Assembly (NCBI RefSeq): GCF_900079115.1 | Contig: NZ_LT549890.1 | Location: 1,380,001-1,412,000 of the forward strand | Source of the DNA: Saccharolobus solfataricus | Lineage (GTDB): Archaea; Thermoproteota; Thermoprotei_A; Sulfolobales; Sulfolobaceae | Reading direction: 5' to 3' | Length of the DNA stretch: 32,000 nucleotides | Shown here: positions 4,436-29,843 of the stretch, in pieces | Numbering within the stretch: the stretch's first letter is position 1 | Layout: each line of letters begins with the position of its first letter | Position numbers and translations under genes: made by a program | Notes under the pieces: generated by a model | The model's database searches: none | What the model was told of the DNA's origin: nothing | Seen by the model: the letters and a program-made list of their open reading frames with translations, nothing else

Positions 4436-6560
4436 CTTTCAATTCTATAAGAGATTATCTGAGGATATACTTTAATCGGATTGTGTTAGGTGGAGAGATG
4501 TTCTTTCAATTCTATAAGAGATTATCCCATCTACCACACCGCGGACACTGGTATAAACATGCACCGGCTTTCAATTCTATAAGAGATTATCTCAGTCTTA
4601 TTGTCGAGGAGTAGTGGTAGGAGTGATACCTTTCAATTCTATAAGAGATTATCGGAAGAGACAAGACTCTACAGTACAATATGCCCCAGATGCTTTCAAT
4701 TCTATAAGAGATTATCAACCGGAAGTACGAACTATGTTGCTGAGATTGTGGTCTATGTCTTTCAATTCTATAAGAGATTATCTTTGTGGTACTTGTAGTT
4801 GTGATGCTGACGTTCCACTACTCTTTCAATTCTATAAGAGATTATCTCAAATCAACAAGTTACAGTAACCAACGGTACTTCAAACCCCTTTCAATTCTAT
4901 AAGAGATTATCTATGTTGTTGTTTGTTGAGTTGTGGTCTGCTGTGTAGTTGCTTTCAATTCTATAAGAGATTATCATCCAGACGAAGTGGGGGCAATCAT
5001 GCAGCCCCCCTCACTTTCAATTCTATAAGAGATTATCAAAGATAATGGATAATAACTTAACATTACAGAATTTAATGCTTTCAATTCTATAAGAGATTAT
5101 CTAAACTCATGTAGCGTTAGTTGGAGCGGATCTGCACAAGTACTTTCAATTCTATAAGAGATTATCCCAGTGTTTTACTTAACATCAGTACAAGGATCAA
5201 AACCCTTTCAATTCTATAAGAGATTATCAAGAGTTCGATCGGATTAAAGAGGAGATTGAGCAAAACTTTCAATTCTATAAGAGATTATCAGTGACTCAAT
5301 ACCGGTCACAATATCTTCAGGTGCTCCCATTCTTTCAATTCTATAAGAGATTATCCGTCCCCATCGAATACGTAAGAGTCTGGAGGGGAATTTACTTTCA
5401 ATTCTATAAGAGATTATCTAAAGGTTACGTTAGAACTAGAAAAGAATGGAAATCTGAACTTTCAATTCTATAAGAGATTATCTGGAGTTTTCAGATATTT
5501 TGTAAAGTACGTTCAGTTTCTTTCAATTCTATAAGAGATTATCAATAGGCTATGGTGTGTGGATGGACCTGTATCGTAAATACTTTCAATTCTATAAGAG
5601 ATTATCCACGCAAAAGGATAAACAATATGGTGCGATTCGAATGGACTTTCAATTCTATAAGAGATTATCACAAACAGTGTGTGTTACATTATCCTTCGAT
5701 TACAACGAACTTTCAATTCTATAAGAGATTATCCTTCTGTTCTGAAATTATAAAGGACATGCTGATAAAATTTCTTTCAATTCTATAAGAGATTATCCTA
5801 ACTGAAGAAGACCCAATTTATATTGCAGGATTTGTCTTTCAATTCTATAAGAGATTATCTGCAGAACCATTAGCTGGTACAGTAACTGTTTGCCAACTTT
5901 CAATTCTATAAGAGATTATCACCATAGTCCCTGATTTCGGTATTCTTTACCCTGTAACCCCTCTTTCAATTCTATAAGAGATTATCGCTTATCTCTCTCA
6001 TGCGCCATTTCTTCTTTCCTTCTTTCCTTTCAATTCTATAAGAGATTATCTATATCCCAAAAAATCTCAGACATTAGAGAGCATTTTTGTCTTTCAATTC
6101 TATAAGAGATTATCAATAGATCCAGAAAATGAATATGTCAAATTAGCTGACATTTCTTTCAATTCTATAAGAGATTATCTTTATTTTCTTGCGATATTTC
6201 ATTACCGAGACTTTTGCCTCTTTCAATTCTATAAGAGATTATCGTTGGCTGTTGGCTGTTGGCTGTTGTCGGTCGATGGCCCACTTTCAATTCTATAAGA
6301 GATTATCAAAGAATATCTTGACGCGTTAGCCGAATTTGACCGAACCTTTCAATTCTATAAGAGATTATCTTGCTTAGTCTTGATAAGTATACTAAAAGTT
6401 CGTTCTTGCTTTCAATTCTATAAGAGATTATCTACCCAACTAAATCATAACCTCTTTGTTGCAGAATTGTTCTTTCAATTCTATAAGAGATTATCAAGAA
6501 GAACCCCCAACTTGTTACGAGATCTTGCAAAAAGCTCTTTCAATTCTATAAGAGATTATC
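4436..6560 (-). CRISPR. CRISPR array 1: 34 identical 24-nt repeats and 33 spacers of 37-43 nt
   Basis: The plus strand shows CTTTCAATTCTATAAGAGATTATC at 4436, 4503, 4568, 4630 and onward to 6472 and 6537. The reverse complement is GATAATCTCTTATAGAATTGAAAG, which ends in the ATTGAAAG 5'-handle sequence. The array is therefore read on the minus strand from the leader at 6561 onward. Confidence 0.99.
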
Positions 6561-6860: not shown

Positions 6861-7574
<714 letters not shown>

Positions 7575-10103: not shown

Positions 10104-10631
10104 TCATAGCAAAACACTAACTGAGCAAACCCTTCTGTACTGGCAAGCCTTACACAACAGAGGTGAGGGATTAACAACTGGAGGACTATCATCTTCTAAG
10201 CTCTCAACCAACTCGTTAACTACCTTACCTATATACTCAACGTGTTCTTTCCTAACCTCGATGTTTATCTTCCTCTCCTTATTCATCAATAACACAGTGT
10301 TCCTAACCCTAAAACCGTTTCTCTCAGCTAAGTAAGCATAAGCTAACAACTGTATCCTGAAGTGATTGTAGAACCTTCTATAGAACGCCTTAATCTCTAT
10401 TACGCTATCTTCAGTTAGAACGTCAACAATTCCATTCAATCCGCTATCCTTATCCCTCAAATGAACTTCGTAATATTTAGGTTCGGGAAAGTCCCTCACA
10501 ATCTCCTTTAAATTCACGTTCTTAGCTATCCTCTGACTATTCGTTATTGGCTCTTTCCATCCCATTTTCTTCCTTATCCAAGGTATGACCTTACATAAGG
10601 AATAGTCTTTTAAATCCGTTACACTAACCAT
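10104..10631 (-). CDS. cas4: Cas4 (RecB-like nuclease with a 4Fe-4S cluster)
   Basis: A 175-aa ORF with an N-terminal Cys (SLCKV) and a C-terminal CKACQYRRVC cluster. IVDVL and VIEIK form the nuclease motif. It overlaps cas2 by 13 nt. Confidence 0.9.
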   Translation of the reverse strand: MVSVTDLKDYSLCKVIPWIRKKMGWKEPITNSQRIAKNVNLKEIVRDFPEPKYYEVHLRDKDSGLNGIVDVLTEDSVIEIKAFYRRFYNHFRIQLLAYAYLAERNGFRVRNTVLLMNKERKINIEVRKEHVEYIGKVVNELVESLEDDSPPVVNPSPLLCKACQYRRVCSVSVLL

Positions 10632-10885
10632 TCCTCTAATCCCTCCCTACCTATTACAATCCTCCTCTCCCAATCCCTTATGCCTAAAGGGATTATGTGA
10701 ACTATGTCAGTATTTGTGTCAACTATTAGCTTAACAACTCTGACTAAATCCTTAACCCTTTGACTGTCAATATCACCCTCAAAGGCACTTCTCTGAATCC
10801 TCTCCAATCCCAGTTTCTTCAAATTATTGGCTAGTTTATTTCTCTTACTGTCATCGGAAACGTCATATACTACCAATAATTTCAA
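10619..10885 (-). CDS. cas2: Cas2
   Basis: An 88-aa ORF. MKLLVVYDVSDDSKRNKLANNLKKLGLERIQRSAFEG is the classical Cas2 ferredoxin-fold N-terminus. It lies directly downstream of cas1. Confidence 0.92.
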   Translation of the reverse strand: MKLLVVYDVSDDSKRNKLANNLKKLGLERIQRSAFEGDIDSQRVKDLVRVVKLIVDTNTDIVHIIPLGIRDWERRIVIGREGLEEWLV

Positions 10886-11805
10886 TCACATCACCAACTT
10901 GAAACCCCTATACTCCTTCCCCTCCCTTATACTTGACGCCAACTTTACCGCATGAGCCCTTATTGCTTGTATCAATGTTTTTGGATTATGATCACTCTCC
11001 TCCTTAACGTTCTCTTCCATTCCCTTCCTTATCAACTTAGCCAAATCTCCCCTACTGTTCTCCTCTATTAAACCCCCCTTAACCTTTAACCTAAAACCAC
11101 TTCTGAGAGCCCTAACTAATAAGAAGTCAATGTATGGTTTAAACATTTCTGAGAAATCGTAAACTAGACTCTCATTTCCAGGTCTATCTTTGTGTATAAA
11201 GCCTAGGTAGGGGTCTAACCCAGCTATAACCAGATATTTGAAAATTGTGTTATAAAGTATTGCGTAAGAGTAGTTCAATGCCATATTAAATTGGTCAGTC
11301 CCATCCACATCTCTACCGTCAAATCCAATATCCTTGGGTAGCAGTTGAGATATGTTCTGCCAATACACTCTAGCAGCAGCCGGTTCATCCTTATCCAACA
11401 ACTCCTTGTAATCGTTCTTAGTTCCAGTTACCCTAGCCCAATACTTTAAGTGTACACTTTGGTTGTAAATCTTTGAACTTATAATCTCCTCTCCGTATCT
11501 ATTGTCCTTCCTTACTACAATTGCCTCGTATTGAGCCTTCTTGGTCTTAACAGTCTCAGTTACGATAGAAGGTAATAATATCCCCCAAGGAGTCTCCCTA
11601 GAGTTCAAGAACATAACGCTTATACCATGAGTTAAGGCTAACGATAGGGCACTAGTTGAAATCGAACAAGACACAGTTATCAGTATTTCGTCGACTTCAG
11701 AAGGCGAAATCTCAACCTTCTTATCACCTTTCTTTATCACTAACATGTTCTTCTTGACGTAAACATATGCACCGTATTCAGATATTACTAAAGTCCTCAC
11801 GCTTA

Positions 11806-11809
<4 letters not shown>
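10886..11809 (-). CDS. cas1: Cas1 integrase
   Basis: A 307-aa ORF placed between csa1 and cas2, with a 4-nt overlap with csa1. Length and the alpha-helical C-terminal half (YSYAILYNTIFKYLVIAGLDPYLGFIHKDRPGNESLVYDFSEMFKP) are typical of Cas1. Confidence 0.93.
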
Positions 11810-12654
<845 letters not shown>

Positions 12655-13045: not shown

Positions 13046-14017
13046 GATAATCTCTTATAGAATTGAAAGATGCCAGTATGGTATCTGCACTATACCCTTG
13101 TAAGTTGGATAATCTCTTATAGAATTGAAAGGATCTACGGGATTGTCGACCTATACAACATGTTTGCCCGATAATCTCTTATAGAATTGAAAGATCGCTG
13201 ATTTGATGAAAGAGATCTCTGATGAGATGATGTCGATAATCTCTTATAGAATTGAAAGTCAGTACCGCCCGCTTTCCTCTGTTCTGTCACACCCACGATA
13301 ATCTCTTATAGAATTGAAAGGCATACTACTATGGCCTAGCAAAAAGCCTATCTGCAAAATTTGATAATCTCTTATAGAATTGAAAGTAGCACGATTACAA
13401 AGTTGAGTTTCTGCCACGCCCCCAAGATAATCTCTTATAGAATTGAAAGGTACGATACCAAGCGCCTTACCTCTTTCCTCTAAATATGATAATCTCTTAT
13501 AGAATTGAAAGCAACACAGCCACGACACGCCCGGTACTTACACACAAACCGATAATCTCTTATAGAATTGAAAGATCGTTATTAACGAGGCGAATGACGT
13601 GTTCAGGTATACCGATAATCTCTTATAGAATTGAAAGGTTTTCCCCTGGGCTATCCATTCGGTGATCTCCCCGTTTACGATAATCTCTTATAGAATTGAA
13701 AGTCAACTTCTCCTACAATTCTATCTTAGCATTAAAGAATTGATAATCTCTTATAGAATTGAAAGTTCCTCCAGCTGAAGAGTCCAGAAGACGTAACTGA
13801 AGGAGGATAATCTCTTATAGAATTGAAAGAAAGATATAATTCTGCATAGATTTTCTGTGACAGAAAGAGGGGATAATCTCTTATAGAATTGAAAGCATGT
13901 TTACGCCTTTAGAAGAAAGAGAATCAGTGGGCGGATAATCTCTTATAGAATTGAAAGACTGCTCCCCTGTTCTGTCCACAATCACGATACGCCGATAATC
14001 TCTTATAGAATTGAAAG

Positions 14018-14326
14018 GCCAACGTTTCTGCAATCTCTTCTCTACGTGCAGAAAAAAATGGAACAGCCACAGTATTTCCGGAAACTGCTACCGATCTGAG
14101 GAAGAAGAAAGTAGAGGTCGAGGAAACTAAGGCACATGCGCTAGTCCACGGCGCTCTGGGGAATTTGAAGGCAGGGACTACAATGACGTTGGAAAAGTTC
14201 GGACAGAGAGTCGACAACTGGTTGGCATCCCACGGCGTAAGTTTCAAACCATCTGAAACGACAAAACAGCTCATAAAGGAGGTAAGACTACAAAGAGCCA
14301 GAAGAAAAAGGGCGAAAAACGCATAA
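14018..14326 (+). pseudogene. 3' fragment of an unknown gene, truncated exactly at the CRISPR repeat
   Basis: The frame is open from the first base after the repeat to the TAA at 14324-14326 (102 codons). The only in-frame ATG is at 14183. The translation runs ANVSAISSLRAEKNGTATVFPETATDLRKKKVEVEETKAHALVHGALGNLKAGTTMTLEKFGQRVDNWLASHGVSFKPSETTKQLIKEVRLQRARRKRAKNA. Confidence 0.5.
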
Positions 14327-14367
14327 GAAGCTATTTATTTTTTATTCTCTATTTCCTATTTTATTAT

Positions 14368-14820
14368 ATGGAAGAAACAATAGTTATTCCGGATATATTA
14401 GATCTTATCGAAAAGGATAAACTACCAAGAGAACTCTACGCCCCGGACGGCTTTTTGGTTTACAAACCGTACGATCCAGCTATTGAAAGTCCCCTATTAG
14501 TCAACAGAAAGAAATGGAAGCTGTTCGCCAACTATACGCCAATAGAAGGCAGACCAGAAGAGGACACATGGATTGTAAAGTTGAATACTACCGAACAGTA
14601 TGTGGAAATACACGATCCAGAGCTAGTTTGGCTACTTTATTACATTAGGGTGGTACACCCAGGAGCGACACCAGAAGAAGCAGTCAACCACGAACTAGCT
14701 GAAGTTGAAAAGGATGGTGGGAAGTTCAAAAATGACGACGAGTTGATTGGCTATGCGATGTACTTGTATACAGCCTTAGCAATCGCCATTGCCTACGGAC
14801 TCCTTGTCGTAGTCGAATGA
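14368..14820 (+). CDS. Hypothetical 150-aa protein with a C-terminal hydrophobic helix; no family recognised
   Basis: A complete ATG-to-TGA ORF. The AT-rich upstream stretch TTTCCTATTTTATTAT abuts the ATG, giving a leaderless-style layout. The C-terminus is YAMYLYTALAIAIAYGLLVVVE. A T6 tract follows directly after the stop. Confidence 0.6.
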   Translation: MEETIVIPDILDLIEKDKLPRELYAPDGFLVYKPYDPAIESPLLVNRKKWKLFANYTPIEGRPEEDTWIVKLNTTEQYVEIHDPELVWLLYYIRVVHPGATPEEAVNHELAEVEKDGGKFKNDDELIGYAMYLYTALAIAIAYGLLVVVE

Positions 14821-14856
14821 TTTTTTCTGATTAACCGGGGAGTTAATTCTTTTTTT
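14821..14856 (+). terminator. Oligo-T terminator candidates downstream of the insert ORF
   Basis: T6 at 14821-14826 and T7 at 14850-14856. Archaeal RNA polymerase terminates at such T-runs. Confidence 0.45.
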
Positions 14857-17800
14857 AACGAATAACGTATGTTCTACCCTTATAATGCCTTAGGAGCGCT
14901 GCATACAGATTCCTGTCGGATAATCTCTTATAGAATTGAAAGACATTGTACCAGTGAAGGAATATTTCGATGCTATTATGAGATAATCTCTTATAGAATT
15001 GAAAGTCTTTCTATCGAAGTACTTTGCCAATGCTTCCTTGAGGGATAATCTCTTATAGAATTGAAAGAGTTTATTTCTAGTAACTCACGCCACGTTCTTT
15101 CAATTGTGATAATCTCTTATAGAATTGAAAGGATGTTGAAGCGGAAGATAGTATAATCACCACCTTGACGATAATCTCTTATAGAATTGAAAGTCGGGTC
15201 ATCTGCATCCAATGTCACGTATAACAGCTGTGGATAATCTCTTATAGAATTGAAAGTACAACGAGTTTCATCTTCTTTATTTCATGCCACCGTTTTGGAT
15301 AATCTCTTATAGAATTGAAAGAAATGGGATGATGAGGGTGTTCAACAGATACAACACCGATAATCTCTTATAGAATTGAAAGCAGGATTACCTCTAGAAT
15401 ATAACGTACGTAGGGTGCATTTGATAATCTCTTATAGAATTGAAAGTACAAATAACTAAGAACGCTGACGATTTCGTGAAGACCGCGATAATCTCTTATA
15501 GAATTGAAAGCTTCATATGTTAAACCATAACAGATTGCACGTGCCACTAGATAATCTCTTATAGAATTGAAAGAGGACAGCATCAAGGAGTTCTGGTTGT
15601 AATTGTTTCTCGTATGATAATCTCTTATAGAATTGAAAGATCTCTCATTTCTTGGCTTACCCTCACACGAATTTGGGCTTGATAATCTCTTATAGAATTG
15701 AAAGACAGTAATGAGGTGTAACCCCTGAGACCTCAGGAGAAGATAATCTCTTATAGAATTGAAAGTGGGAATACGTCTATGACTTACTAATGCCAGCGAA
15801 AGAGAGATAATCTCTTATAGAATTGAAAGCCGTGCTTCACGCCCTGTTTCTCCAAAACAAGAAAGGAGATAATCTCTTATAGAATTGAAAGATGTACCCA
15901 TATGGGTGAACTTGAAGAAAAAATGGTTAAGATAATCTCTTATAGAATTGAAAGATGCTGTACAGTTCTGCAGTTATCTTTTGGCTTAGAAATAGTGATA
16001 ATCTCTTATAGAATTGAAAGTTCAGAAGAGGAAGAGGAAGCAGACAGAGCGGTGGGGCTGATAATCTCTTATAGAATTGAAAGTTCAGTTTGCTAACGCC
16101 TGGGCTATTGATCCTTTTGCCGATAATCTCTTATAGAATTGAAAGTTATTTTCGCAATGATAGCTGGATCGATACCGTTCTTTGCCGATAATCTCTTATA
16201 GAATTGAAAGGCCACATAGTATTGACTACGTGACGGGAATAATAACTGATAGATAATCTCTTATAGAATTGAAAGCTTCTATGGCCATGATTCTTGCCAT
16301 TGGACGAAGTCCTCGATAATCTCTTATAGAATTGAAAGATCATCGAGTACGGAAGATTCCTAGGGTGGAGATCATTAGATAATCTCTTATAGAATTGAAA
16401 GTTCGTTGCGTTTACCATGTTCATGTAAATTAATACTTGGGATAATCTCTTATAGAATTGAAAGTCTTCGTCATAGCCTGGTCTTCCTGCACGTCCGCAA
16501 AGATAATCTCTTATAGAATTGAAAGATTATCTTCACATTAAACCCCACTCCTAGAGTTGAATTTGAGATAATCTCTTATAGAATTGAAAGGTATCAGCAG
16601 TGAACCATTCATACTGGATGTTGCGAATCGATAATCTCTTATAGAATTGAAAGGATAATAATCAACGAGGCAAACTCCATGTTCTACAAACGATAATCTC
16701 TTATAGAATTGAAAGTTTCAAAGGGAAAATCTGAATAAATACGTCTGGAAATTGGATAATCTCTTATAGAATTGAAAGAGTTGCTTTTTATAGTTTCTCT
16801 GACTGTGCACTGTCATGGATAATCTCTTATAGAATTGAAAGAGCTCTTCTCATGAAAGTTTATAAATTTTGTAGTTACATACTGATAATCTCTTATAGAA
16901 TTGAAAGACAAAATAATTTCTAGTCCAAGCTTTCACGGCTGCTTCTGATAATCTCTTATAGAATTGAAAGTACTGCAATGCGCGTTTCAATGCTAACAAT
17001 GCTCCGATGATAATCTCTTATAGAATTGAAAGCTTCAAGAATGAGCAAACCGCAAGCACTTAAAAAGATTGATAATCTCTTATAGAATTGAAAGTAACTA
17101 CTGCAGTAGTATTTTTTGCGTTAGCTACAATGTGATAATCTCTTATAGAATTGAAAGTAATTTCTGCATAAATATCTTCCACAACACGTTTGCTTACGGA
17201 TAATCTCTTATAGAATTGAAAGTCTTCAAGGCTTAATTCGCCTTGTTGTGTCCCACCCTCTAGATAATCTCTTATAGAATTGAAAGAAAGTACTTAGTCG
17301 TATAACAGTCTTCTTGGGCGAGGGATAATCTCTTATAGAATTGAAAGACTCAAAAAGAGTTTGAAAATTTTGTTGAATTTGTAAAGATAATCTCTTATAG
17401 AATTGAAAGGTAACTGGGTCGTGGACTGTGTACAACGACGGCGATAATGATAATCTCTTATAGAATTGAAAGGAAACTCGTGCCAATTTGTTGAGTCAAA
17501 ACTTAAATAGAATGATAATCTCTTATAGAATTGAAAGCATGGTGGGGGGGCGTCAAAAATTCAGAAATATTTTGCATGATAATCTCTTATAGAATTGAAA
17601 GAACTCCTTTGCAATCCTATATCTAGTGTAGCCGTCTAAGATAATCTCTTATAGAATTGAAAGCTGCTCCATCAAACGGCCCCGTGAGGGATACTATGAA
17701 GATAATCTCTTATAGAATTGAAAGAATTTGAACATAATTCGGCCTCGTCAGTTTTCCACAGATAGATAATCTCTTATAGAATTGAAAGTCCCTAACTTAG

Positions 17801-20800
17801 GTTGGGGTAAAGAAATAGAACATAGATGATAATCTCTTATAGAATTGAAAGTTTACTGACAACGCCATCATACTTACTAGCCCAACTAAGATAATCTCTT
17901 ATAGAATTGAAAGGTCCATTCTCCATTTATCTCAACCTTATCACAAATTTGGAGATAATCTCTTATAGAATTGAAAGTCAGTTCTAGAAAGAATTATTAG
18001 CATTAGATCTTCTAGACTGATAATCTCTTATAGAATTGAAAGCTCTCTATCCCAGATGGAATTCCAAAGGATCAAGCAGGATAATCTCTTATAGAATTGA
18101 AAGATCTGAATTTCCTCAGCTTCCATTGCATAATTTATTCTAGATAATCTCTTATAGAATTGAAAGTATTTACCTTAATATTATGTATAATAGATAAGAG
18201 CTCCCTGATAATCTCTTATAGAATTGAAAGACTATGGACCTACTACAGGGCCTATCTGACTTTCTGTCGATAATCTCTTATAGAATTGAAAGTTATTGTC
18301 AGAAAAAGAAATTATACTCCGATTAATAGCGATAATCTCTTATAGAATTGAAAGGTCAAAATTGCCCAACCGAACGTTAGCAAAAATGCAGCACGATAAT
18401 CTCTTATAGAATTGAAAGTCCCTTTCAGATTTGCAATATGTTAGAGCGAGCTTCGCAAAGATAATCTCTTATAGAATTGAAAGGCTGAATTGTAAAATTA
18501 CGTTTATTACTTTCAGTCAACCGATAATCTCTTATAGAATTGAAAGGTTTTATTTATAAACGGCGGGTCTAGATAAAATACAGTTGATAATCTCTTATAG
18601 AATTGAAAGTCACTCTTTCAGTCATCATTCTCTTTGCTGAGATTGCTCTGATAATCTCTTATAGAATTGAAAGGCGAAAACAATAGCAGGCGAAATAGAA
18701 GATAAAATGATAATCTCTTATAGAATTGAAAGGCAATAGACAATATAAGGAAGAGCTTACCACCTAGAGGCGATAATCTCTTATAGAATTGAAAGCCTAG
18801 AGGCGTAGCGGGCTCACAAGAAAACATTAATGATAATCTCTTATAGAATTGAAAGAATGCCTGAAGCAATAACGCCCAAGTTACATGCTCTTGGATAATC
18901 TCTTATAGAATTGAAAGATCCCGCTACGGCAATCCCTACGAATAGATCGGCATTAGATAATCTCTTATAGAATTGAAAGGTGTATAAGCACATTAGTAGG
19001 ATTAGGCACGGTACAAGGATAATCTCTTATAGAATTGAAAGAATCACGAAAGCGATACTAAGGGCAATACAATACAAACATGGATAATCTCTTATAGAAT
19101 TGAAAGCTTATTTTGGTGTCAATAATCTGTATGTTGCCGTATTGCGATAATCTCTTATAGAATTGAAAGAGATTGTTTTATTAATACCAAGTAGACAATT
19201 ATATATTTTGATAATCTCTTATAGAATTGAAAGCCAAAACATGTCACATGTGCCGATATTGATATTTACAAAGATAATCTCTTATAGAATTGAAAGAAAT
19301 CTACCGATCAACGGACGAGGGGGAACGCTAAGAAGATAATCTCTTATAGAATTGAAAGGGGAGTTCCCATTCGATTTTGGGAACCCTCAAGCACAGTCTG
19401 TGGATAATCTCTTATAGAATTGAAAGTTGTGCGCCTAGAGTTGCTACGCCTTGTTTCCACACCTCATGATAATCTCTTATAGAATTGAAAGCTAACTTGT
19501 TAAAGTTCTGTTGTAGCTCGTTAAGTTGTGATAATCTCTTATAGAATTGAAAGGTTCCAGCTAAGATGTTCTTTCCTGCAGTCTTTGTTGATAATCTCTT
19601 ATAGAATTGAAAGAACTAAGCCTTCACTAGGTGAGATAAAGAGCATAGCTATGATAATCTCTTATAGAATTGAAAGATCCGTTCTCCGTCCCGATCCGTA
19701 CCGTTCTCTGTACTGATAATCTCTTATAGAATTGAAAGAGCATAACTTCATCTTCTTCTACAACTTCGACAGCTTGATAATCTCTTATAGAATTGAAAGT
19801 TAATTTATTGTCATCAAATCTATTTAGATACGCTAGTATTAGATAATCTCTTATAGAATTGAAAGATATTTCTTCGAATGGGTTTTCTGTATCACCTTCT
19901 TCATGATAATCTCTTATAGAATTGAAAGCATTTGTTATCAACTGTCCGGGTCCAGCGCTAGATGCGGTGATAATCTCTTATAGAATTGAAAGCAAAGTCA
20001 GAGCTGGACTATCGTAGACATCTATAATAGATAATCTCTTATAGAATTGAAAGACGTAGCCTAGACTTGCTATAACTCCGTTGTATTGCCCGATAATCTC
20101 TTATAGAATTGAAAGATACCAACAGCAACAACAAACTTATTCTTCGCTCATACAGATAATCTCTTATAGAATTGAAAGACGAACACACCCCTTAAAACTC
20201 TTTTTCCAACATTCACCTGATAATCTCTTATAGAATTGAAAGCAAAGTCAGAGCTGGACTATCGTAGACATCTATAATAGAGGATAATCTCTTATAGAAT
20301 TGAAAGTCTTAGCGAACTTGCAAAATATTCCGACCAAAGCTAATAGATAATCTCTTATAGAATTGAAAGTCAGGTGAGGAAGATGGTCTCCAAAACTACT
20401 GTTATTGGTGATAATCTCTTATAGAATTGAAAGGAGAGCTACAAACACGCTACCTAATAAAATTTCCAGATTGTAGGATAATCTCTTATAGAATTGAAAG
20501 ATACAGATTTCGTTATCCATATCCTACATGACTTTCCGATAATCTCTTATAGAATTGAAAGATACATCGATCTTGTAATTAGATATCCATTGACTGTTAT
20601 GATAATCTCTTATAGAATTGAAAGATGGAATAGGCTCTCAACAGCAGTATAATTGGCAAGTATTGATAATCTCTTATAGAATTGAAAGTCTACTCTTATA
20701 ATTCCGTTACTTATCTTAACAGAGAACGGATAATCTCTTATAGAATTGAAAGCGTTTCTATTGCAAGGTCTGAGATTTTTGGCCTGAGTAGATAATCTCT

Positions 20801-23800
20801 TATAGAATTGAAAGGTATTGAAACGCTTAAGGTCAGCTCTAATTCTGTACGGATGATAATCTCTTATAGAATTGAAAGATGTTACTAAGTAAGTTTAATA
20901 ATATATTATAAAATGCCATATAGATAATCTCTTATAGAATTGAAAGCTAAGCAGTGACTCACAGTTTAGACATTCACAAGTATCGATAATCTCTTATAGA
21001 ATTGAAAGTTCTAAGCGTGTAAAGATCTATCTGACAACACGAAACTATGGATAATCTCTTATAGAATTGAAAGTTGAATATTGTACAAAGGAACGTTTAA
21101 CCCTATAATAGACGATAATCTCTTATAGAATTGAAAGCAATCCCATTCGTTTTACTCACTTCTAAGAACCTCGCGATAATCTCTTATAGAATTGAAAGAG
21201 TCTCTGCATCATGATCCCTGCCCCAGCTAAGACGTTCTGATAATCTCTTATAGAATTGAAAGACGATTTTCGGTGTGAATAATGTAAATTTGCAAGTATC
21301 TGGATAATCTCTTATAGAATTGAAAGGTCTTTATGGCCCTCTGGGTCTTTCCACCATTGAGAGGAGATAATCTCTTATAGAATTGAAAGTTATCCTCATT
21401 CTATCGGTGAGTGGAACAAATTGGGTAGCGATAATCTCTTATAGAATTGAAAGATCGTTATGCTGTAAACTTCCCCGGTTCTCAATCCCGTTTGATAATC
21501 TCTTATAGAATTGAAAGAGTTAACAATACTTTATTGTCAAAGAAGCAAGGATATGCGGATAATCTCTTATAGAATTGAAAGTTCAAACTAGATCTAGAAG
21601 ATTTCTATCGGCATCTTTACATGATAATCTCTTATAGAATTGAAAGACGATATGAAAGTTGCCAGAGCCTTAAACAGAATTGGTTCGATAATCTCTTATA
21701 GAATTGAAAGGCTTCTTGTCCCTGAACTCCTTCTTGAAATGGATTTATTGATAATCTCTTATAGAATTGAAAGTTTCGTATAAGGACCAGAACGGCAATA
21801 CCCAAACTGTGATAATCTCTTATAGAATTGAAAGCTACTACATCATCCTCTACCACGCCAAGCCAACAACCGATAATCTCTTATAGAATTGAAAGATCTA
21901 GCGTTGTCTCTGCCGTTATATATTTGAAAGTGTGATAATCTCTTATAGAATTGAAAGATCGCTGATCCAGAACCACGTGGCGAATACAGGAAGAACTAGA
22001 TAATCTCTTATAGAATTGAAAGATCAAAAGTCCGCTATGGTCTAACGGTGTAAATAATTCTGATAATCTCTTATAGAATTGAAAGAATTGGATCCCTACG
22101 GTTGACGGATCACCGAAAGTGTGATAATCTCTTATAGAATTGAAAGATCATATTTTGAATTCTCTTATACAGAAATCTTTGATATGATAATCTCTTATAG
22201 AATTGAAAGATAGCTATATATGGAAATGTTCCAGACGCGGAATATGTTGCGATAATCTCTTATAGAATTGAAAGAAGCCTACACAGGATAGGATACTCAA
22301 ATTATATGAAAATGATAATCTCTTATAGAATTGAAAGTTTGCGCATTTACTTTTGTATGAGCTAGGCTATTTACATCATGATAATCTCTTATAGAATTGA
22401 AAGCTGAAATATCCTTCAAATTGATTTGCCAATAAATTAAGATAATCTCTTATAGAATTGAAAGTGTTCTGTCGTTACTGTCGTAAAGCACGTCCTATTA
22501 TGATAATCTCTTATAGAATTGAAAGACAGTGCAGAAGTCTAATCCAAATTATTCTACTTTAGCGATAATCTCTTATAGAATTGAAAGTCCTTGGAGATGT
22601 TGATGTTTTATACGGTATTATGTGAAGATAATCTCTTATAGAATTGAAAGGCACAATTCGCCAACGATTTCGGTTCGCTTTATACCTTGATAATCTCTTA
22701 TAGAATTGAAAGCAAATTTCGGCGAAAATTGTACCGAATTTCGGCATTGCTGGGATAATCTCTTATAGAATTGAAAGAAGATCATGGTATTGATATTCAA
22801 AAACATTATTCAGAGTGGATAATCTCTTATAGAATTGAAAGATTAGAAAAGTTTAAGATTACGCATGCAAATATGTTTTTGATGATAATCTCTTATAGAA
22901 TTGAAAGTTCTGTTTCGAAGAAAACCCGCCTCAGATTCATTATGGGGATAATCTCTTATAGAATTGAAAGAAATCAAACGGAAACTCCCCGGATATTATC
23001 ATGTCTAAAGATAATCTCTTATAGAATTGAAAGCCTCATCGTAAACATGCAATCTTGCATATTCAGTGTAGATAATCTCTTATAGAATTGAAAGGCGATA
23101 TATGTTATAAGAGGAGAAGGGACTTTACCCCCTGATAATCTCTTATAGAATTGAAAGATATACATCGCCGGTTTTATAGCAACTGCACAGCAACAAATGA
23201 TAATCTCTTATAGAATTGAAAGGAAGTTGCAAAAATTGCCAATGTTTTTTTCAAACGCGTGATAATCTCTTATAGAATTGAAAGATTTATGATGAAAATA
23301 GGAAATTTTTCAGAAGAATTATAGATAATCTCTTATAGAATTGAAAGAAAAGTTTAAATACCCGAAGCCACAAAGGTAAAAATAGATAATCTCTTATAGA
23401 ATTGAAAGCGTTCTAGAGCTAAACGATGCATACGCGGTGGTACAACTAGATAATCTCTTATAGAATTGAAAGATTCGGGGAAAACTTATGCATTATAAGA
23501 AGAAGAGATATTTGATAATCTCTTATAGAATTGAAAGTCAAATAAGGAACAACTCTGGGTAAGCCCACAATACGCAAGATAATCTCTTATAGAATTGAAA
23601 GCTTAGCGTCTCAACCTGAACCAAACTTCCTAGATCAACGATAATCTCTTATAGAATTGAAAGTAAACTAGATCCTTATATTTCACGTAAATGTAAAGGG
23701 GGATAATCTCTTATAGAATTGAAAGTAAGGAGTAAGCTAGCACTAGCAATAGCGGTTGCAATAGATAATCTCTTATAGAATTGAAAGGTTCATCAGTTCT

Positions 23801-23850
23801 ACCTTTTGGTCCAAAGGCTGATCCAAGAGAATCTCTTATAGAATTGAAAG

Positions 23851-24202
23851 ATCTTGATGATATTCAATGAAGTCCATTAGTACTTCCCCCCAAGGAGGTT
23901 GGAGAGAGGGAGAAAAAGAGTCGTTTGAGAGGTTGATAAATAGGATTATGAGGTTGGGAAGGGTTAGAGGGATGAGAGTGATTTTTGCAACGTATAAACC
24001 CCAAGATTTAAATGATTTAATGTTAACGTTAACTAACTTAAAGATTGCATTGAGGGTTAAAGAAGACGCTTTAGATAGGATTAACATGAAGGAATAAGCT
24101 AAGTTGTTGCAAGCTTCACCACCAGGGTATGGAGCGTTGAGGACTTTCTCGTTAAAGGTGAGAGATCTGATATTCAGAAATGAGAAGTATCAAGATTCAT
24201 GA
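23851..24202 (+). pseudogene. Remnant of a HerA/FtsK-like (DUF87-type) ATPase C-terminus, cut off by the end of array 2
   Basis: The 76-aa ORF 23867-24097 reads INRIMRLGRVRGMRVIFATYKPQDLNDLMLTLTNLKIALRV. This resembles the arginine-finger/sensor region of HerA-like ATPases. An in-frame TAA at 24095-24097 is followed by 34 more codons in the same frame (AKLLQASPPGYGALRTF...). No N-terminal ATPase core is present, and the sequence begins directly after the terminal repeat. Confidence 0.5.
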
Positions 24203-24226
24203 AGATTAGATAGATCTTAGTAGTGT

Positions 24227-24859
24227 TTAGAAGGTAGTATTATTTCTAGTTAAAGTGCCAAGCACTGCCTTAGGTGTAAAATCCCTTCCATCATAGGTCC
24301 ACACGCTATTTAAACTGTAAGCGTATTCTAAAAACCTCCTTAACAAATTGTCATTTGGCAACTCATTATGCTATTCTCATTTCCTAAAACGATTAGTTTA
24401 TACCTTGGTCTAGTAAAGGCAACGTTTAACCTCCTTCTATTGGTAACAAATCTCAAGCCATTAGTCGCGGTCACGCTAAAAATTATCACGTCTTTCTCCC
24501 TCCCTTGAAATGCGTCAACTGTGTTTACCTCAACATATGGCTTATAGTTTGCCAATTCTTGGTCTAACTTTCTCACTTGAGTTCTATAAGGCGATATAAC
24601 TCCAACATCTTGTCCTATTAATTTGGATATAAGAAATTTAATGGCTTTCACGATTTCCTCTGCGACCTTGTAAGCTTTTCCTGAAGCTTGAATAGTATCT
24701 CCTTTCTTTAAGTACTCGTAAGCTTCAGCCATATATTTTTCGGCAATTTCTAACCTCAATCTAATTCCTTCTTGTGGGTCATCCTTAGATATTTCTCTGA
24801 TCAGTAGATCCTCTACGTCAATGCCTTTCTCTCTAGCCTTTTTTTATTAACTCTTCCAT
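24227..24859 (-). pseudogene. Chimeric, frameshifted remnant: a PaREP1-like N-terminus joined to the C-terminal end of an SF1 (Upf1/Dna2-like) helicase
   Basis: ORF 24340-24759 has a PaREP1-like helix pair (LEIAEKYMAEAYEYLKKGDTIQASGKAYKVAEEIVKA). It then has helicase motifs V-VI: VNTVDAFQGREKDVIIFSVT and RRLNVAFTRPRYKLIVLGN. The upstream ATG at 24859 is connected only through a frameshift in an A7 run (plus-strand T7 at 24839-24845). The helicase tail continues in another frame to a stop at 24227-24229. Confidence 0.5.
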
Positions 24860-25271
24860 AAGTAAATTAAGGTGAGACGGGGTTATAAATTAAAGCTCAT
24901 ATAATCATAACATGACTCAAGCTTTCATTGTGAATTATAATTTATGATTAACATCCCAAGGAAAATTCTAGACTATGAAAATTTTATATTAAAAGGATCA
25001 AGAGAGCGAAAGTCTTCTCCCATGAGGAATATGGCTCCCTATACATTTTGCTGAATCCTTTAATTTTCTTAAATGCTAGGATAATAAATTTTCCTTGAAC
25101 TAGAGTGTTAATTTGAAAGCAAATTCAATGTTAGCATTGTTGAAAATTTAAGCAATCCACAAAGCATTGAAAGCGTTAATGGGTGCAATTATAGGATAGT
25201 ATTTTTGCGTAAAATCCTAGAATGCGGGGTTTTGGCATACGTTAGTATTACTTATAAAATATAAATCTTGC

Positions 25272-25358
25272 TCTTTAAAATCTAACGATGTATAAAATCA
25301 AGTTAGCGACAGACGCAGTAGTCTTAAACCAAATCTTTAAAATCTAACGATGTATAAA
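25272..25358 (-). repeat. Two perfect 25-nt direct repeats separated by 37 nt, forming a CRISPR-like mini unit
   Basis: TCTTTAAAATCTAACGATGTATAAA occurs at 25272-25296 and 25334-25358, a period of 62 nt. The first 12 nt of CTTTAAAATCTA match the resident repeat CTTTCAATTCTA at 10/12. Confidence 0.5.
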
Positions 25359-25495
25359 CTTCCTATCTTGTTCCTATTACTTTTAGAAGGATTCTGGAAT
25401 CAATTTATCTTTTGCACTATAGGAAAATTGTGTATTAAAAAATTTTAAAATTAAGTTGGAATAATTTTTTATTCTTAAATCATTAAGGGTAGAAC

Positions 25496-26755
25496 ATGGA
25501 GGAACTTCTTACTTCGAATTTATTGGTTCAACAAGTTAAGAAGTTGTATAAAGTTGGTGAATTGTTGGGTTTAGATAGTGAGACTATAGATGTCCTTTCT
25601 CAACCAGAAAGGGTTATGCAAGTTAAGATACAGATTAGGAGTTCTGATGGTAAGTTAAGGACGTTTATTGGTTGGAGAAGTCAGCATAATTCAGCCTTGG
25701 GTCCATATAAGGGAGGAGTTAGATACGGTCCCAATGTTACACAAGATGAAGTAATAGCACTATCGATGATTATGACGTGGAAGAACTCCCTTTTATTACT
25801 ACCCTATGGGGGAGGAAAGGGTGGGATAAGAGTAGATCCTAAGAAGCTAACATTAAAGGAATTGGAGGATTTGTCTAGGAAATACGTTCAATTGATTCAC
25901 AAGTATTTGGGTAGTGATGTTGACATTCCTGCACCTGACATTAATACTAACCCGCAAACTATGGCTTGGTTCCTAGATGAATACATAAAGATAACTGGTA
26001 AAGTAGATTTCGCAGTGTTTACTGGTAAGCCTTCCGAGCTAGGTGGGATAGGTGTTAGACTCTACAGCACTGGGTTGGGTGTAGCGACAATAGCTAGAGA
26101 TGCTGCTAATAAGTTTATAGGAGGAATTGAAGGATCAAGGGTTATAATTCAAGGGTTTGGAAACGTTGGTTTTTTTACCGCTAAATTCTTGAGCGAAATG
26201 GGGGCTAAAATAATTGGAGTTAGCGATATTGGAGGAGGGGTAATTAATGAAAATGGAATAGACGTTAATAGGGCGTTGGAAGTTGTTCAGAGTACAGGTA
26301 GTGTTGTGAATTACCTTGAGGGTAAAAAGGTTACGAATGAGGAGTTGTTAATAAGCGATTGTGATATATTGATTCCGGCTGCAGTGGAAAACGTTATAAA
26401 TAAGTTTAATGCTCCGAAGGTTAGGGCAAAGCTTATTGTTGAAGGTGCAAATGGTCCATTGACTGCAGATGCTGATGAAATAATGAAGCAAAGGGGTGTA
26501 ATAGTCATACCAGACATTTTAGCTAACGCAGGGGGAGTTGTGGGTAGTTATGTGGAGTGGGCTAACAATAGGTCTGGTGGAATAATTAGTGATGAGGAGG
26601 CTAAGAAACTTATTGTAGATAGAATGATAAATGCTTTTAATACTTTATACGATTTTCACAAGAGAAAGTTTGCTGATCAGGATTTGAGGACTGTAGCGAT
26701 GGCTTTAGCTGTGGATAGAGTAGTAGGGGCAATGAAGGCGAGGGGTCTACTATAA
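25496..26755 (+). CDS. gdhA: Glutamate dehydrogenase (NAD(P)+)
   Basis: A 419-aa ORF with GPYKGGVRY, the catalytic-Lys motif [13 protein letters not shown], and the dinucleotide-binding GFGNVG. Confidence 0.95.
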
Positions 26756-26805
26756 TATGTTCTTCTTTTCTCAGTCTTAAACTTATGCTAGGTATTAGAC
26801 AGCTA

Positions 26806-27394: not shown

Positions 27395-27970
27395 CTAAAC
27401 CATATATTTCAACAAACCCCCATCATCACTTACTTTACCGTATAAATCCAACAAATAATTAGGAATTTCAATCTCTCTACTAGTAACGCTTTTCACTATA
27501 ATGAACTTAAAACCCCTAGTGCTCTTAATTAGCTTAATCATTGAGTGAGAAGTGTGTGAACCGAAAATCGAACCTTCTCTTTCCCTATCCATAAAGCTGA
27601 ACAAGAACTTCCTGCCCTTAACTTTCCTCAATGACGAGACGATCTTAGTGTAGTTCTTTCTATAATGATAAGGATCAATAATAATTAAGTCGTTATCTCC
27701 CATTGAGTCTATAGTAATTGGCACATCTTCAGCCTTGAAAGCCCTCCTTATATACACCTCTGCGTGATTGTCGAAGATGTTTTGAAAACGCTCTATTAAG
27801 TAAGGATCTAATCCACCTCTTTCGGAAACCACTACAACGTAAACTGGGGCTGAAATGGCTATAACTCTATGATAGAACGTTCTTAACAAATCGTTATCAG
27901 TTGAGAAGAACTCCACAATTTCATCCCTCTTTATTATCTCGTCTAAAAAGGGAAAGCCAGTAGTTAACAC
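27395..27970 (-). CDS. Hypothetical protein resembling a RecA/KaiC-superfamily (RadA-paralogue-like) core without a Walker A motif
   Basis: A 191-aa ORF overlapping the polB2 stop by 7 nt. The N-terminus MLTTGFPFLDEIIKRDEIVEFFST parallels the TG-x-x-x-LD...G-x-I segment of RadA paralogues. GxxGxGKT is replaced by STDNDLLRT. DLIIIDPY sits where Walker B would be. The call rests on pattern recognition only. Confidence 0.4.
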   Translation of the reverse strand: MLTTGFPFLDEIIKRDEIVEFFSTDNDLLRTFYHRVIAISAPVYVVVVSERGGLDPYLIERFQNIFDNHAEVYIRRAFKAEDVPITIDSMGDNDLIIIDPYHYRKNYTKIVSSLRKVKGRKFLFSFMDREREGSIFGSHTSHSMIKLIKSTRGFKFIIVKSVTSREIEIPNYLLDLYGKVSDDGGLLKYMV

Positions 27971-29649
27971 CTAGACATCACCTCTTCCACGTCTTCATAA
28001 ACCCTCTTCAAGTAATTGATGTAGTAATTTACGTCCCTTCCCATATAACCTAGCCTAGCCTCATAAAATCCCTTAATTCCCCTTACGTAAGGAACGTCCT
28101 TAATCCATATTACGTAATCTATTGGCTCACCGTTTATAGCCCTCTTTCTATAATGCTCGAATAAATCCCTAATCCTAAGCTTTTTAACGTCAGAACAAGT
28201 CTTAGCTGATGAGAACTCCCTTAGCACGTCTTCCAAAAACGATTTAACGATATTGGGCATGTTCTCCCTTATTAGTCCCTTAGCTATCATTTCACCGTTC
28301 ATGTTTGCAATATATCTTGTAGGATATGGTGTATTGTTTCTGGTAATAGTGAAGATAATCCAATTGTAACGTTTATAATCCAGTCTTAACCCCGTTTCTT
28401 TCTCGACTTTCTCAATGAATTTATCAACGTTATCACCCTTAACAACCAGTGAATCTATTATACCATGTAAAACCCTTAACCCCATCTCCTCAGCAATCTC
28501 CATTGTTCTCCTTAACGTTTTCCTAGCTAAATATGTGACCATTTCGTATGCCTCAATCTTTCCAAACAAGGAATTCCTATAACCTAGATAGCCAAAAGAG
28601 GCTACTAAAATCCACTTTATTGCCTCAGCTCTCTCTTCGTCAATTTTCTTCAATTCCGATTTTCTCTCTATCAACCACTGTAAGGCTTCTGGTATAATTC
28701 CCTTTTCCTTTAAGCAAATTGAGTGCAACTCAGTTTTTATATCATCACATGCTTCAACGGTTTCAGCTGAAATATTATGCTTTACAATTAAGGAGGGATA
28801 CATTGAAGAGAAGTCAACTTGATAAACATTATCATAACATCCGGGCTGTGGGAAGAGTATTAGCCCACCCTTATCCACCATCATTATATCCTCTAATCTT
28901 CTCAATTTCTCAACTCTAGGAACAACTTTAGGTATGATAATTCTTCTCTTAAATGCGACCCACGCTTCATTTATTGTTAACACTTTACCAATAGTGGCAT
29001 AGGCTATTTCGTGAATTGGTGTAAGCGAAATAAAGGACCACTCTATTAATCCCTTTGCCGAAACTGGGGACCTCTTCTTCTCAATTCTAATCTTAACGTT
29101 TGACTTTACGTAATTGCAGGCTTCTCCTAAACATTCAGCGATATCGACCTCAACTTCAGGCTTTTCGTAAAATCTCCTAACCTCGTTATTTATTTTAACT
29201 TCAAACACTTTCCCTTTTAACGATTCACCGTACCAATCCAAGGGTACAACTCTTGCAATGGTTACCTTTGGAAATTCATCATCAGAAGAGCGAAATCTCC
29301 TAAATGGTTTTATCCCTAGGCGGTATAGCGTTTGAGATAGTACTGTTGGTGTTTCGTTCACGACGTTTAACCTTTTCCTCATGTAATAATAAGCGTCAAG
29401 GGATTCTACCTCAAAGCGATAAACCTTAACCTCTTTCCCATCTAACGTTTTCCACTTTTCCTTTTCGTAATATCTCACCTCTGGGTGCTGTAGTACTATA
29501 TCTGGGTTATCTGTTATGGTGTAAACTGGGAAGGTTGTTCTGATAGTTTTCTCCTTGAAATTGCTTAGGAATAGTTTCACTCCTCCCTTGATTGGATAAG
29601 CGTCAAGTACGTACTCCTCCATTTCTCGCATTCCTCCGCCAAAGCCCAA
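27964..29649 (-). CDS. dpo2: Family B DNA polymerase, PolB2/Dpo2 type (short form, degenerate motif C)
   Basis: Motif A is QVDFSSMYPSLIV. Motif B is KWILVASFGYLGY. Motif C reads HGIIDSLVV instead of YGDTDS. The N-terminus EEYVLDAYPIKGGVKLFL is the usual PolB start. The real initiation codon is probably M at 29631 or 29622 rather than 29649. Confidence 0.88.
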   Translation of the reverse strand: MGFGGGMREMEEYVLDAYPIKGGVKLFLSNFKEKTIRTTFPVYTITDNPDIVLQHPEVRYYEKEKWKTLDGKEVKVYRFEVESLDAYYYMRKRLNVVNETPTVLSQTLYRLGIKPFRRFRSSDDEFPKVTIARVVPLDWYGESLKGKVFEVKINNEVRRFYEKPEVEVDIAECLGEACNYVKSNVKIRIEKKRSPVSAKGLIEWSFISLTPIHEIAYATIGKVLTINEAWVAFKRRIIIPKVVPRVEKLRRLEDIMMVDKGGLILFPQPGCYDNVYQVDFSSMYPSLIVKHNISAETVEACDDIKTELHSICLKEKGIIPEALQWLIERKSELKKIDEERAEAIKWILVASFGYLGYRNSLFGKIEAYEMVTYLARKTLRRTMEIAEEMGLRVLHGIIDSLVVKGDNVDKFIEKVEKETGLRLDYKRYNWIIFTITRNNTPYPTRYIANMNGEMIAKGLIRENMPNIVKSFLEDVLREFSSAKTCSDVKKLRIRDLFEHYRKRAINGEPIDYVIWIKDVPYVRGIKGFYEARLGYMGRDVNYYINYLKRVYEDVEEVMSRC

Positions 29650-29843
29650 ATTAGCGCAAAGTAAACTAGGTTATAGGGATCAACCAGTTCGTCATATGAT
29701 GCACTTTGAGTATACCTTACTTTTTCCTTAACCCTTTCTAGTAAAAGGGATAATATGGGAGAGTGTAAGCGTTCTATAATTCTTTCCAGCTTTTCCAATT
29801 CTCTGTTCACCGCCATGGTGTATGAGGGTTGTGTTCTTCCCAT
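29577..29843 (-). CDS. Small helical hypothetical protein, first ORF of the PolB2 cassette
   Basis: An 88-aa ORF whose 3' end overlaps the polB2 5' end by about 45-70 nt in another frame. No family is recognised. The coding status of the overlapping tail is uncertain. Confidence 0.35.
   Translation of the reverse strand: MGRTQPSYTMAVNRELEKLERIIERLHSPILSLLLERVKEKVRYTQSASYDELVDPYNLVYFALIWALAEECEKWRSTYLTLIQSREE

Follow-up and report, generated by a model that had tools for sequence, protein, structure and literature searches.

A repeat-length duplication around a spacer-sized insert upstream of gdhA in Saccharolobus solfataricus, a possible scar of off-target CRISPR spacer integration

In a stretch of 32,000 nucleotides (nt) of the chromosome of Saccharolobus solfataricus (NZ_LT549890.1, positions 1,380,001 to 1,412,000 of the forward strand; this whole stretch is here called the window, and coordinates refer to it unless another locus is named), a small unit made of two identical 25-nt segments around a unique segment of 37 nt accompanies two long CRISPR arrays and ends 137 nt 5' of gdhA. 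The unit is a real, non-chance and CRISPR-related feature. On supportive if circumstantial evidence, we give a probability of about 0.55 to the reading that it is the fixed scar of an off-target (ectopic) integration of a spacer by the resident type I-A Cas1-Cas2 proteins, that is, a "neo-CRISPR" unit, which is now assumed to be a passive fossil. Most likely it represents a new natural example of a known process and not a new system. In the initial annotation, drawn up without database searches, one of the proposals was that of a minimal third CRISPR locus; its CRISPR-related origin has found support and is the part that comes closest to the reading favoured here, while the unit is not a canonical array. 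As worded there, none of the three proposals agrees with the evidence.

From a structural perspective, the unit consists of a perfect direct repeat of 25 nt, TCTTTAAAATCTAACGATGTATAAA, whose two copies were located by a search of the window at 25272..25296 (copy 1, host DNA joined to the left flank) and 25334..25358 (copy 2, the right border of which is the left end of the gdhA-cassette homology), with a repeat-to-repeat period of 62 nt. No third copy of the 25-mer occurs in the window at up to 3 mismatches and 0 matches were obtained in 100 shuffles. The 37 nt between the copies (25297..25333), a putative spacer, have a single occurrence in the window and all the fetched loci taken together. 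If the T at 25272 and 25334 matches by chance, the duplication is exactly 24 nt long and the insert becomes 38 nt. Successive 62-mers have only the 25-mer in common, and the 37-mer between the copies and those on either side share at most 12 of 37 positions with one another; a tandem duplication of 62 nt is ruled out by these unrelated flanking segments. No other CRISPR-sized interspersed direct repeat was detected in about 0.37-0.52 Mb of non-CRISPR Sulfolobales DNA. Moreover, the unit is identical in all 7 S. solfataricus contigs examined, and the gdhA product and its flanks show no difference in CP033235 (98/2-type), CP050869, ACUK01 and several Logan assemblies. Scans for tRNA genes and att sites found neither in the window, and neither tandem or inverted repeats nor termini like those of miniature inverted-repeat transposable elements (MITEs) were found around the unit. 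The arrangement of a 25-nt repeat occurring twice around a unique 37-nt segment, placed 1.4 kb past the second array in surroundings rich in gene debris, had been described in the initial annotation and was confirmed by these searches and shuffles: the last repeat of array 2 ends at 23850, the unit lies 1,421 nt further on, and gene remnants were found between the two.

The duplicated 25-mer is, by comparison with a sister species, native chromosomal DNA, which in the lineage of S. solfataricus came to stand twice, with a foreign 37-mer in between. Two S. shibatae genomes served as comparators (CP077713 and strain B12, CP077717). In both of them the 58 nt that border the unit on its left (25222-25276, which take in the left flank at 25222..25271) have an 81% homologue in intergenic DNA beside a gene for a 191-aa protein, ahead of the single-copy site, and this homology extends to …AAATCTTGC, the last base before copy 1. 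The next 25 bases of S. shibatae, CTTTTGAGGTCTGGCCGGGCATAAT, match the 25-mer at 13 of 25 positions at offset 0, with 9 of the 12 mismatches being transitions (p=0.0006 when identity is scored and p=0.0003 when transitions are scored as well; background 3.6e-5 per position), and offsets of ±1 are not significant. A single S. shibatae copy, in register and joined to a homologous flank, indicates that the "repeat" is native host DNA that has been duplicated. S. shibatae lacks a second copy of the 25-mer, and downstream it has no likeness to the 37-mer or to the remainder of the unit (z 0.0 and −1.3); to the right of its single copy the sequence runs ACTTATTGATG… and is not the gdhA cassette. The single-copy site can be reconstructed as …AAATCTTGC-TCTTTAAAATCTAACGATGTATAAA-CTTCC…. 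The mismatches between the two species within the 25-mer are mostly an S. shibatae G facing an S. solfataricus A, a local excess of transitions.

The reference for CRISPR dimensions is provided by the two resident arrays, array 1 (4436..6560, minus strand, 34 repeats) and array 2 (13046..23850, plus strand, 158 repeats), which carry the identical CD-family repeat GATAATCTCTTATAGAATTGAAAG, 24 nt in length, and leaders that are identical over 120 nt. Their spacers (n=189) measure 35-44 nt with a mean of 39.3, lengths of 37 and 38 nt accounting for 10.6% and 20.1%, respectively. The earlier claim that the unit has the dimensions of the resident arrays therefore holds for the insert, which at 37 or 38 nt falls inside the resident range, and needs a correction for the repeat: the resident one is 24 nt long and not 25, which the duplication matches if its one ambiguous base is not counted. 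The GC content of the insert, 40.5%, is at the median level of the resident spacers (39.4±8.5%), against 28.8% for local intergenic DNA.

The likeness to CRISPR extends to the duplicated segment itself. On the minus strand the 24-mer of copy 1 (25273-25296), TTTATACATCGTTAGATTTTAAAG, stands in register with the resident repeat and matches it at 13/24 positions overall, with 10/12 falling in the 3' half as against 3/12 in the 5' half, which upholds what had been read by eye for both halves, namely a 10/12 likeness in the one, here found to be real and in register, and an unrelated sequence in the other. The 10/12 match is that of TAGATTTTAAAG with TAGAATTGAAAG; it concerns the leader-distal half, and its register is that of the end of the duplicated block. 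A 10/12 match has, in 144 kb of Saccharolobus DNA outside CRISPR, a background of 1.2e-4 per position and strand (2.9e-4 in AT-rich windows); somewhere in 32 kb of shuffled sequence about 9 such matches arise by chance, and for a match that is in register p is about 1e-3. Under the 24-nt model (25273-25296), the plus-strand acceptor is a C at +1 with a C at −2, and the end bearing this C acceptor is the same that carries the 10/12 leader-distal match (bottom strand CTTTAAAATCTA as compared with CTTTCAATTCTA). Cas1-Cas2 of S. solfataricus reportedly prefers a C at −2 together with either C or G at +1 (PMC5815122), and the repeat of Pyrococcus furiosus has the same end, …ATAGAATTGAAAG (PMC6698737).

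A target duplication of repeat length around an insert of spacer length is the signature of Cas1-Cas2 integration. In such a scenario, an ordinary intergenic stretch would by chance have resembled the leader-distal half of the CRISPR repeat; Cas1-Cas2, which we infer to be the agent, may have carried out two transesterifications on opposite strands, one repeat-length (24 nt) apart; a spacer-sized fragment of ~37-38 nt would have been joined in, and gap filling would then have duplicated the 24/25-nt target. The product would be a pseudo-repeat, a spacer and a second pseudo-repeat, i.e. a one-spacer unit without a leader. On this model the side of the protospacer adjacent motif (PAM), 5'-CCN, would correspond to the insert end adjoining …TTTTAAAG.

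The genes for such an event are present in the window. Between the two arrays lies a type I-A adaptation cassette, composed of a csa3-type regulator (6861..7574, plus strand, PF22662), an insertion sequence (IS) element, cas4 (10104..10631, PF01930), an open reading frame (ORF) of 88 aa in the position of cas2 (10619..10885, between cas4 and cas1 and assigned by position alone), cas1 (Cas1CD, the proposed integrase; 10886..11809, PF01867, E=5e-52) and csa1 (11806..12654, PF06023, E=3e-110), the last four on the minus strand. The Cas1-Cas2-Cas4-Csa1 module is 13 kb from the unit, and of the cognate adaptation genes Cas1, Cas4, Csa1 and Csa3 are recognised by Pfam. For loci C and D, Cas1 corresponds to sso1450 and Cas2CD to sso1450a, and in vitro the S. 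solfataricus Cas1-Cas2CD proteins are promiscuous and integrate all around plasmids (PMC5815122). Furthermore, P. furiosus Cas1-Cas2 performs full-site integration, with a repeat-length ruler, at non-CRISPR sites that are only 43% identical to the repeat (PMC6698737).

Several observations weigh against integration. The 5', leader-proximal half of the pseudo-repeat has only the 3/12 match given above, and the acceptor base on the opposite side is T, the least favoured by SsoCas1, for which the order of acceptors is G>C>A>T (PMC4574026). Neither flank is leader-like when compared with the resident leaders (z −1.3 to −0.2), and specific integration in the S. solfataricus system requires a leader of at least 400 bp (PMC5815122). 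The duplicated length is 25 nt, and the 24-nt model costs one chance match. No empty-site allele occurs among the seven S. solfataricus contigs examined, and S. shibatae, the sole species available for comparison, has diverged and has a different arrangement, its sequence (reverse complement of locus L126, 7531-7555) differing from the 25-mer at 12/25 positions, far more than in the adjoining flank (11/58). A search for a syntenic locus by way of the PaREP1/AAA_12 remnant, to the left of the unit, gave S. solfataricus contigs that carry the unit and, apart from these, only a non-syntenic locus of E5-1-F.

The source of the insert was likewise sought. No protospacer or PAM for the 37-mer was found in phage and plasmid collections, in IMG/VR (three sub-words) or in the JGI metagenomes, so that the search of virus and plasmid collections suggested at the outset yielded no source; the only matches were 18-mers, due to chance, in unrelated contigs of ~48% GC. 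As a control, the phage collection includes Sulfolobales viruses and yet only a minority of the resident spacers match it. Because only this minority matches anything, the missing protospacer is weak evidence.

The position of the unit raises a further difficulty. The gdhA cassette (25356..26772, plus strand), formed by a promoter region of ~140 nt, the gene at 25496-26755 with its ATG at 25496 and a short tail at the 3' side, has homologues at gdhA loci elsewhere, and the DNA on its left has been joined on by rearrangement: homology of the cassette to every other gdhA locus begins at 25356. In E5-1-F and S. shibatae, homology goes on further toward PMSR. This rearrangement junction falls within 3 nt of the right border of the duplication, which, under the integration model, is either a coincidence (~3-5%, a rough estimate) or calls for an extra assumption. 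The order of the integration relative to the rearrangement of the gdhA cassette is, like the agent, something we infer.

The main rival of the integration reading starts from this very position and considers the unit as a rearrangement junction made without Cas1-Cas2, by template switching, microhomology-mediated break-induced replication or a templated insertion of the type seen in microhomology-mediated end joining: while the block with the CRISPR locus and the left flank was becoming linked to the gdhA cassette, 37 nt would have been copied from elsewhere, followed by a slip back, the re-copying of the last 25 nt and a jump to the gdhA cassette. Both edges of the unit are homology breakpoints with respect to S. 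shibatae and E5-1-F (left ends at 25271-25276, gdhA starting at 25356), the region is heavily rearranged among Saccharolobus species, and 2-3 nt of microhomology (AAA) may be present between copy 2 and the gdhA cassette. However, three template switches are needed, two of them at one base, and no template for the 37-mer was found in the 32-kb window or in any fetched locus. Moreover, a repeat-length duplication, an insert in the spacer range and an in-register 10/12 match with C at +1 and −2 are not predicted by this model, and their joint chance is estimated, roughly, at 1e-4 to 1e-5. In fact, template switching explains the position and not the CRISPR-matching dimensions or the in-register similarity, and we regard it as rather unlikely.

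The same evidence bears on the other CRISPR-based explanations. The initial annotation had considered a decayed third locus and, alternatively, a viral mini-array left behind in the chromosome. A remnant of a foreign or decayed array, or of a virus-borne mini-array, would agree with the CRISPR-like dimensions, with a repeat that ends in …AAAG like those of the Sulfolobales and with the vicinity of array 2. Copy 1, however, is a homologue of native intergenic DNA of which S. shibatae has one copy only, and the two copies are mutually identical, have 11/24 differences from the resident repeat and come without a leader. The decayed-array proposal fails because independent decay cannot leave identical copies that are 11/24 off the resident repeat. 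The viral proposal was also abandoned, as the repeat is native chromosomal DNA and the viral types carry host-like repeats (PMC6858448). The search of the repeat against other genomes and viruses that had been recommended was run with its 22-mer core, which has no exact match in 185,579 species genomes (a collection apparently without cultured Saccharolobus species, the negative thus covering other taxa only), in the JGI metagenomes or in IMG/VR, and the 17-mer matches to viruses are single-copy and due to chance. No viral or plasmid matches were found for the repeat, which together with the left flank is homologous to the S. shibatae chromosome. Taken as a whole, a remnant of this sort is hardly credible. 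Two more specific candidates were rejected: a canonical CRISPR array, neither flank of the unit resembling the resident leaders and its repeat, at 13/24 identity with the CD repeat, lying outside the repeat family of the resident Cas6 and effector proteins; and a virus-borne mini-array, for which repeats identical or very similar to those of the host are the criterion (PMC6858448, PMC8616872), as against 54% identity here.

Whatever its origin, the unit might be at work as a functional mini-array or as a mimic of a CRISPR RNA (crRNA), the latter being the third proposal of the initial annotation. According to this idea, a minus-strand transcript would be cut by the relaxed Cas6-3 protein 8 nt before the end of each pseudo-repeat, and the 62-nt RNA product, running from 25342 down to 25281, would be loaded into an effector complex. 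The bases of the would-be cleavage site are largely kept (UAGA/UUUUAAAG as compared with UAGA/AUUGAAAG, the slash marking the cut), and a precedent exists in ncRNA60, a lone motif with 1/3 stem pairs that is cut by Cas6-3 and enriched in CSM (PMC4041471). The fixation of the unit, identical in all S. solfataricus assemblies, would also agree, although identity among strains says little on selection when these are about 99.9% identical overall. Against a crRNA mimic, the unit lacks a leader and any recognisable likeness to a promoter, the 37-mer yielded no target, the RNA fold is no better than that of shuffles on either strand (z +0.5) and Rfam gave no relevant match at gathering or permissive thresholds. 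Judged by inspection with the published rule (PMC4041471), 1/3 pairs of the Cas6-1 stem and 1/5 loop bases are kept and 2/8 positions of the handle differ; recognition by Cas6-1 looks lost because so few of the stem pairs and loop bases are kept. A functional guide of this kind is quite unlikely.

A different explanation leaves CRISPR aside and sees in the two 25-mers protein-binding or promoter elements, six helical turns apart, with a regulatory action on gdhA or on a divergent transcript. The two copies are situated 137-224 nt 5' of gdhA in AT-rich DNA, the 62-bp spacing sets both copies on one face of the helix and, by inspection, TATA-like motifs (TTTAAAA and TTTATA) are present in each copy, on both strands. 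On the other hand, the pair stands 5' of none of the other gdhA genes examined, be they the S. solfataricus and S. islandicus paralogues, those in the corresponding position in S. shibatae and E5-1-F or those of 17 other Sulfolobales; a conserved gdhA promoter lies ~100 nt downstream of copy 2; the 25-mer lacks dyad symmetry (11/25 matches with its own reverse complement, by inspection); and the single diverged copy of S. shibatae stands beside a different gene. The conserved gdhA operator, which the initial annotation had named as the arrangement that would speak against a CRISPR origin, was accordingly looked for and rejected, the pair being found at no other gdhA examined. A regulatory role has, in our estimation, a very small chance of being correct.

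A bolder variant of the favoured reading was also considered, in which the unit is a newborn CRISPR locus: off-target integration would have made a new repeat family, with a guide processed by Cas6-3 as for ncRNA60, and/or with a Cas1-driven rearrangement at copy 2. We hold this to be improbable. Within it there is room for repeated attacks of Cas1 on the pseudo-repeat border, which may have caused the rearrangement that abuts copy 2, and a segment of 901 nt within array 2, similar to a giant spacer, would offer a parallel, in that long DNA has been joined there at the borders of repeats.

Off-target integration as a scar can be placed beside several known systems. With the off-target events described for P. 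furiosus (PMC6698737) and S. solfataricus (PMC5815122) the unit shares a duplicated non-CRISPR target of repeat length around an insert of spacer length, a C acceptor with C at −2 at one border and a cognate adaptation module, the identity of the target to the repeat being 54% here and 43% at the best P. furiosus off-target site (PMC6698737). What sets it apart is that its likeness to the repeat is leader-distal only, there is no leader-like flank and the second acceptor is T. It would also be a natural, fixed fossil, next to a junction of rearrangement. New arrays arising from off-target integration have been reported for E. coli and, with circumstantial evidence, for two other species, according to a preprint that cites the 2018 study of Nivala and co-workers.

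The mini-arrays of Sulfolobales viruses (SPV1, SPV2 and others, e.g. ATV) resemble the unit in having one spacer and two repeats, no adjacent cas genes and the dimensions of host arrays (PMC6858448). Their repeats are identical or very similar to host families, the leaders of the SPV mini-arrays are host-like and contain promoters, and their spacers target related viruses (PMC6858448), whereas the repeat of the unit is native chromosomal DNA with 54% identity to that of the host, accompanied by no leader, and no target was found for its insert. The S. solfataricus ncRNA60 (PMC4041471), in turn, is similarly a repeat-like sequence outside arrays in which the flanks of the Cas6 site are kept, with 1/3 of the stem pairs in both cases. 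It differs in being a single motif, similar to the AB repeat, with all 5 loop bases, and in being an abundant RNA for which cleavage has been shown (PMC4041471), while the unit has two motifs, is similar to the CD repeat and keeps 1/5 loop bases.

From a broader perspective, integration of spacers at off-target sites has been well documented by in vitro work and for engineered E. coli, and natural fixed examples are few and circumstantial. The study of Nivala, Shipman and Church on "neo-CRISPR" loci that appeared in Nat Microbiol in 2018 reportedly took its natural cases from Yersinia pestis and Sulfolobus islandicus, which the citing preprint gives as "two other species". If the reading of the unit as an integration scar is true, it would add a natural case from an archaeal type I-A system, with a pre-integration target for which a sister species allows a partial reconstruction. 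The S. solfataricus integrase would then seem able to act in vivo in the absence of its leader of 400-500 bp, with the leader-distal half of the repeat and a 24-bp ruler as its guides, and the case would bear on the origin of new CRISPR arrays and repeat families and on the role of Cas1 in chromosomal rearrangement. If the unit were a newborn locus, the CRISPR integrase would be tied to both array genesis and genome rearrangement in a natural archaeal lineage. The "questionable" CRISPRs returned by CRISPR finders, in which two identical short repeats flank a spacer-sized gap, are mostly chance or tandem repeats; the unit differs from them in the repeat-length duplication of a single-copy host site and in the in-register likeness to the resident repeat. 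Should it be a mere scar of rearrangement, it would be a caution against over-reading two-repeat "CRISPR" calls.

Some further features of the window deserve to be recorded. The last repeat of array 2 (23827-23850) has one mismatch, GAGAATC… for GATAATC…, and is the sole degenerate repeat among the 158. Two spacers of the same array, at 19993-20031 and 20243-20281, four units apart, share at least 39 identical nt and are not identical over the full length. The 901-nt segment, at 14018-14918, is placed exactly between two intact array-2 repeats and contains ORFs of 150 aa (14368-14820) and 53 aa (14165-14326); the former has no Pfam family, the latter only a weak sub-threshold match, and the segment gave no blastn match in phage or plasmid collections. 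The IS element of the adaptation cassette (8093-9259), located between csa3 and cas4, encodes a 388-aa DDE_Tnp_1 transposase.

The gene remnants between the array-2 trailer and the unit, at 23867-24759, are a 76-aa ORF without a Pfam family and a chimera of 139 aa in which the N-terminus is of the PaREP1 type and the C-terminus that of an AAA_12 helicase. Further on, a dispersed element of ~120 nt (25047-25166) is ~70% identical to copies at another S. solfataricus locus (L091/L092, 492-619), which occur partly in both orientations, and in S. shibatae beside the gene for the 191-aa protein; a MITE-like or a regulatory repeat may be involved.

On the other side of the unit, the ends of the gdhA cassette are sharp, ~140 nt upstream and ~20-50 nt downstream of the gene. 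The cassette is found in at least 3 contexts, namely the present one, the locus of the S. solfataricus and S. islandicus paralogue and the PMSR locus of S. shibatae and E5-1-F, and the Saccharolobus species differ in how gdhA, AAA_14, peptidase S9 and the 191-aa ORF are ordered. No gdhA orthologue with an intact upstream region is closer than 93%, all relatives being at or below this value. The downstream neighbours of gdhA, the 191-aa ORF and PolB2, are conserved. PolB2 (DNA_pol_B, a 561-aa ORF at 27964-29649) is preceded by an overlapping ORF of 88 aa (29577-29843), and this split layout is also seen in the S. islandicus, S. shibatae and E5-1-F loci. Finally, an S. shibatae-like metagenome-assembled genome (L090) carries, just 3' of gdhA, a perfect direct repeat of 18 nt, TTTTTAAACCCTTTGATA, at 4599-4616 and 4633-4650, with a 34-nt spacing.

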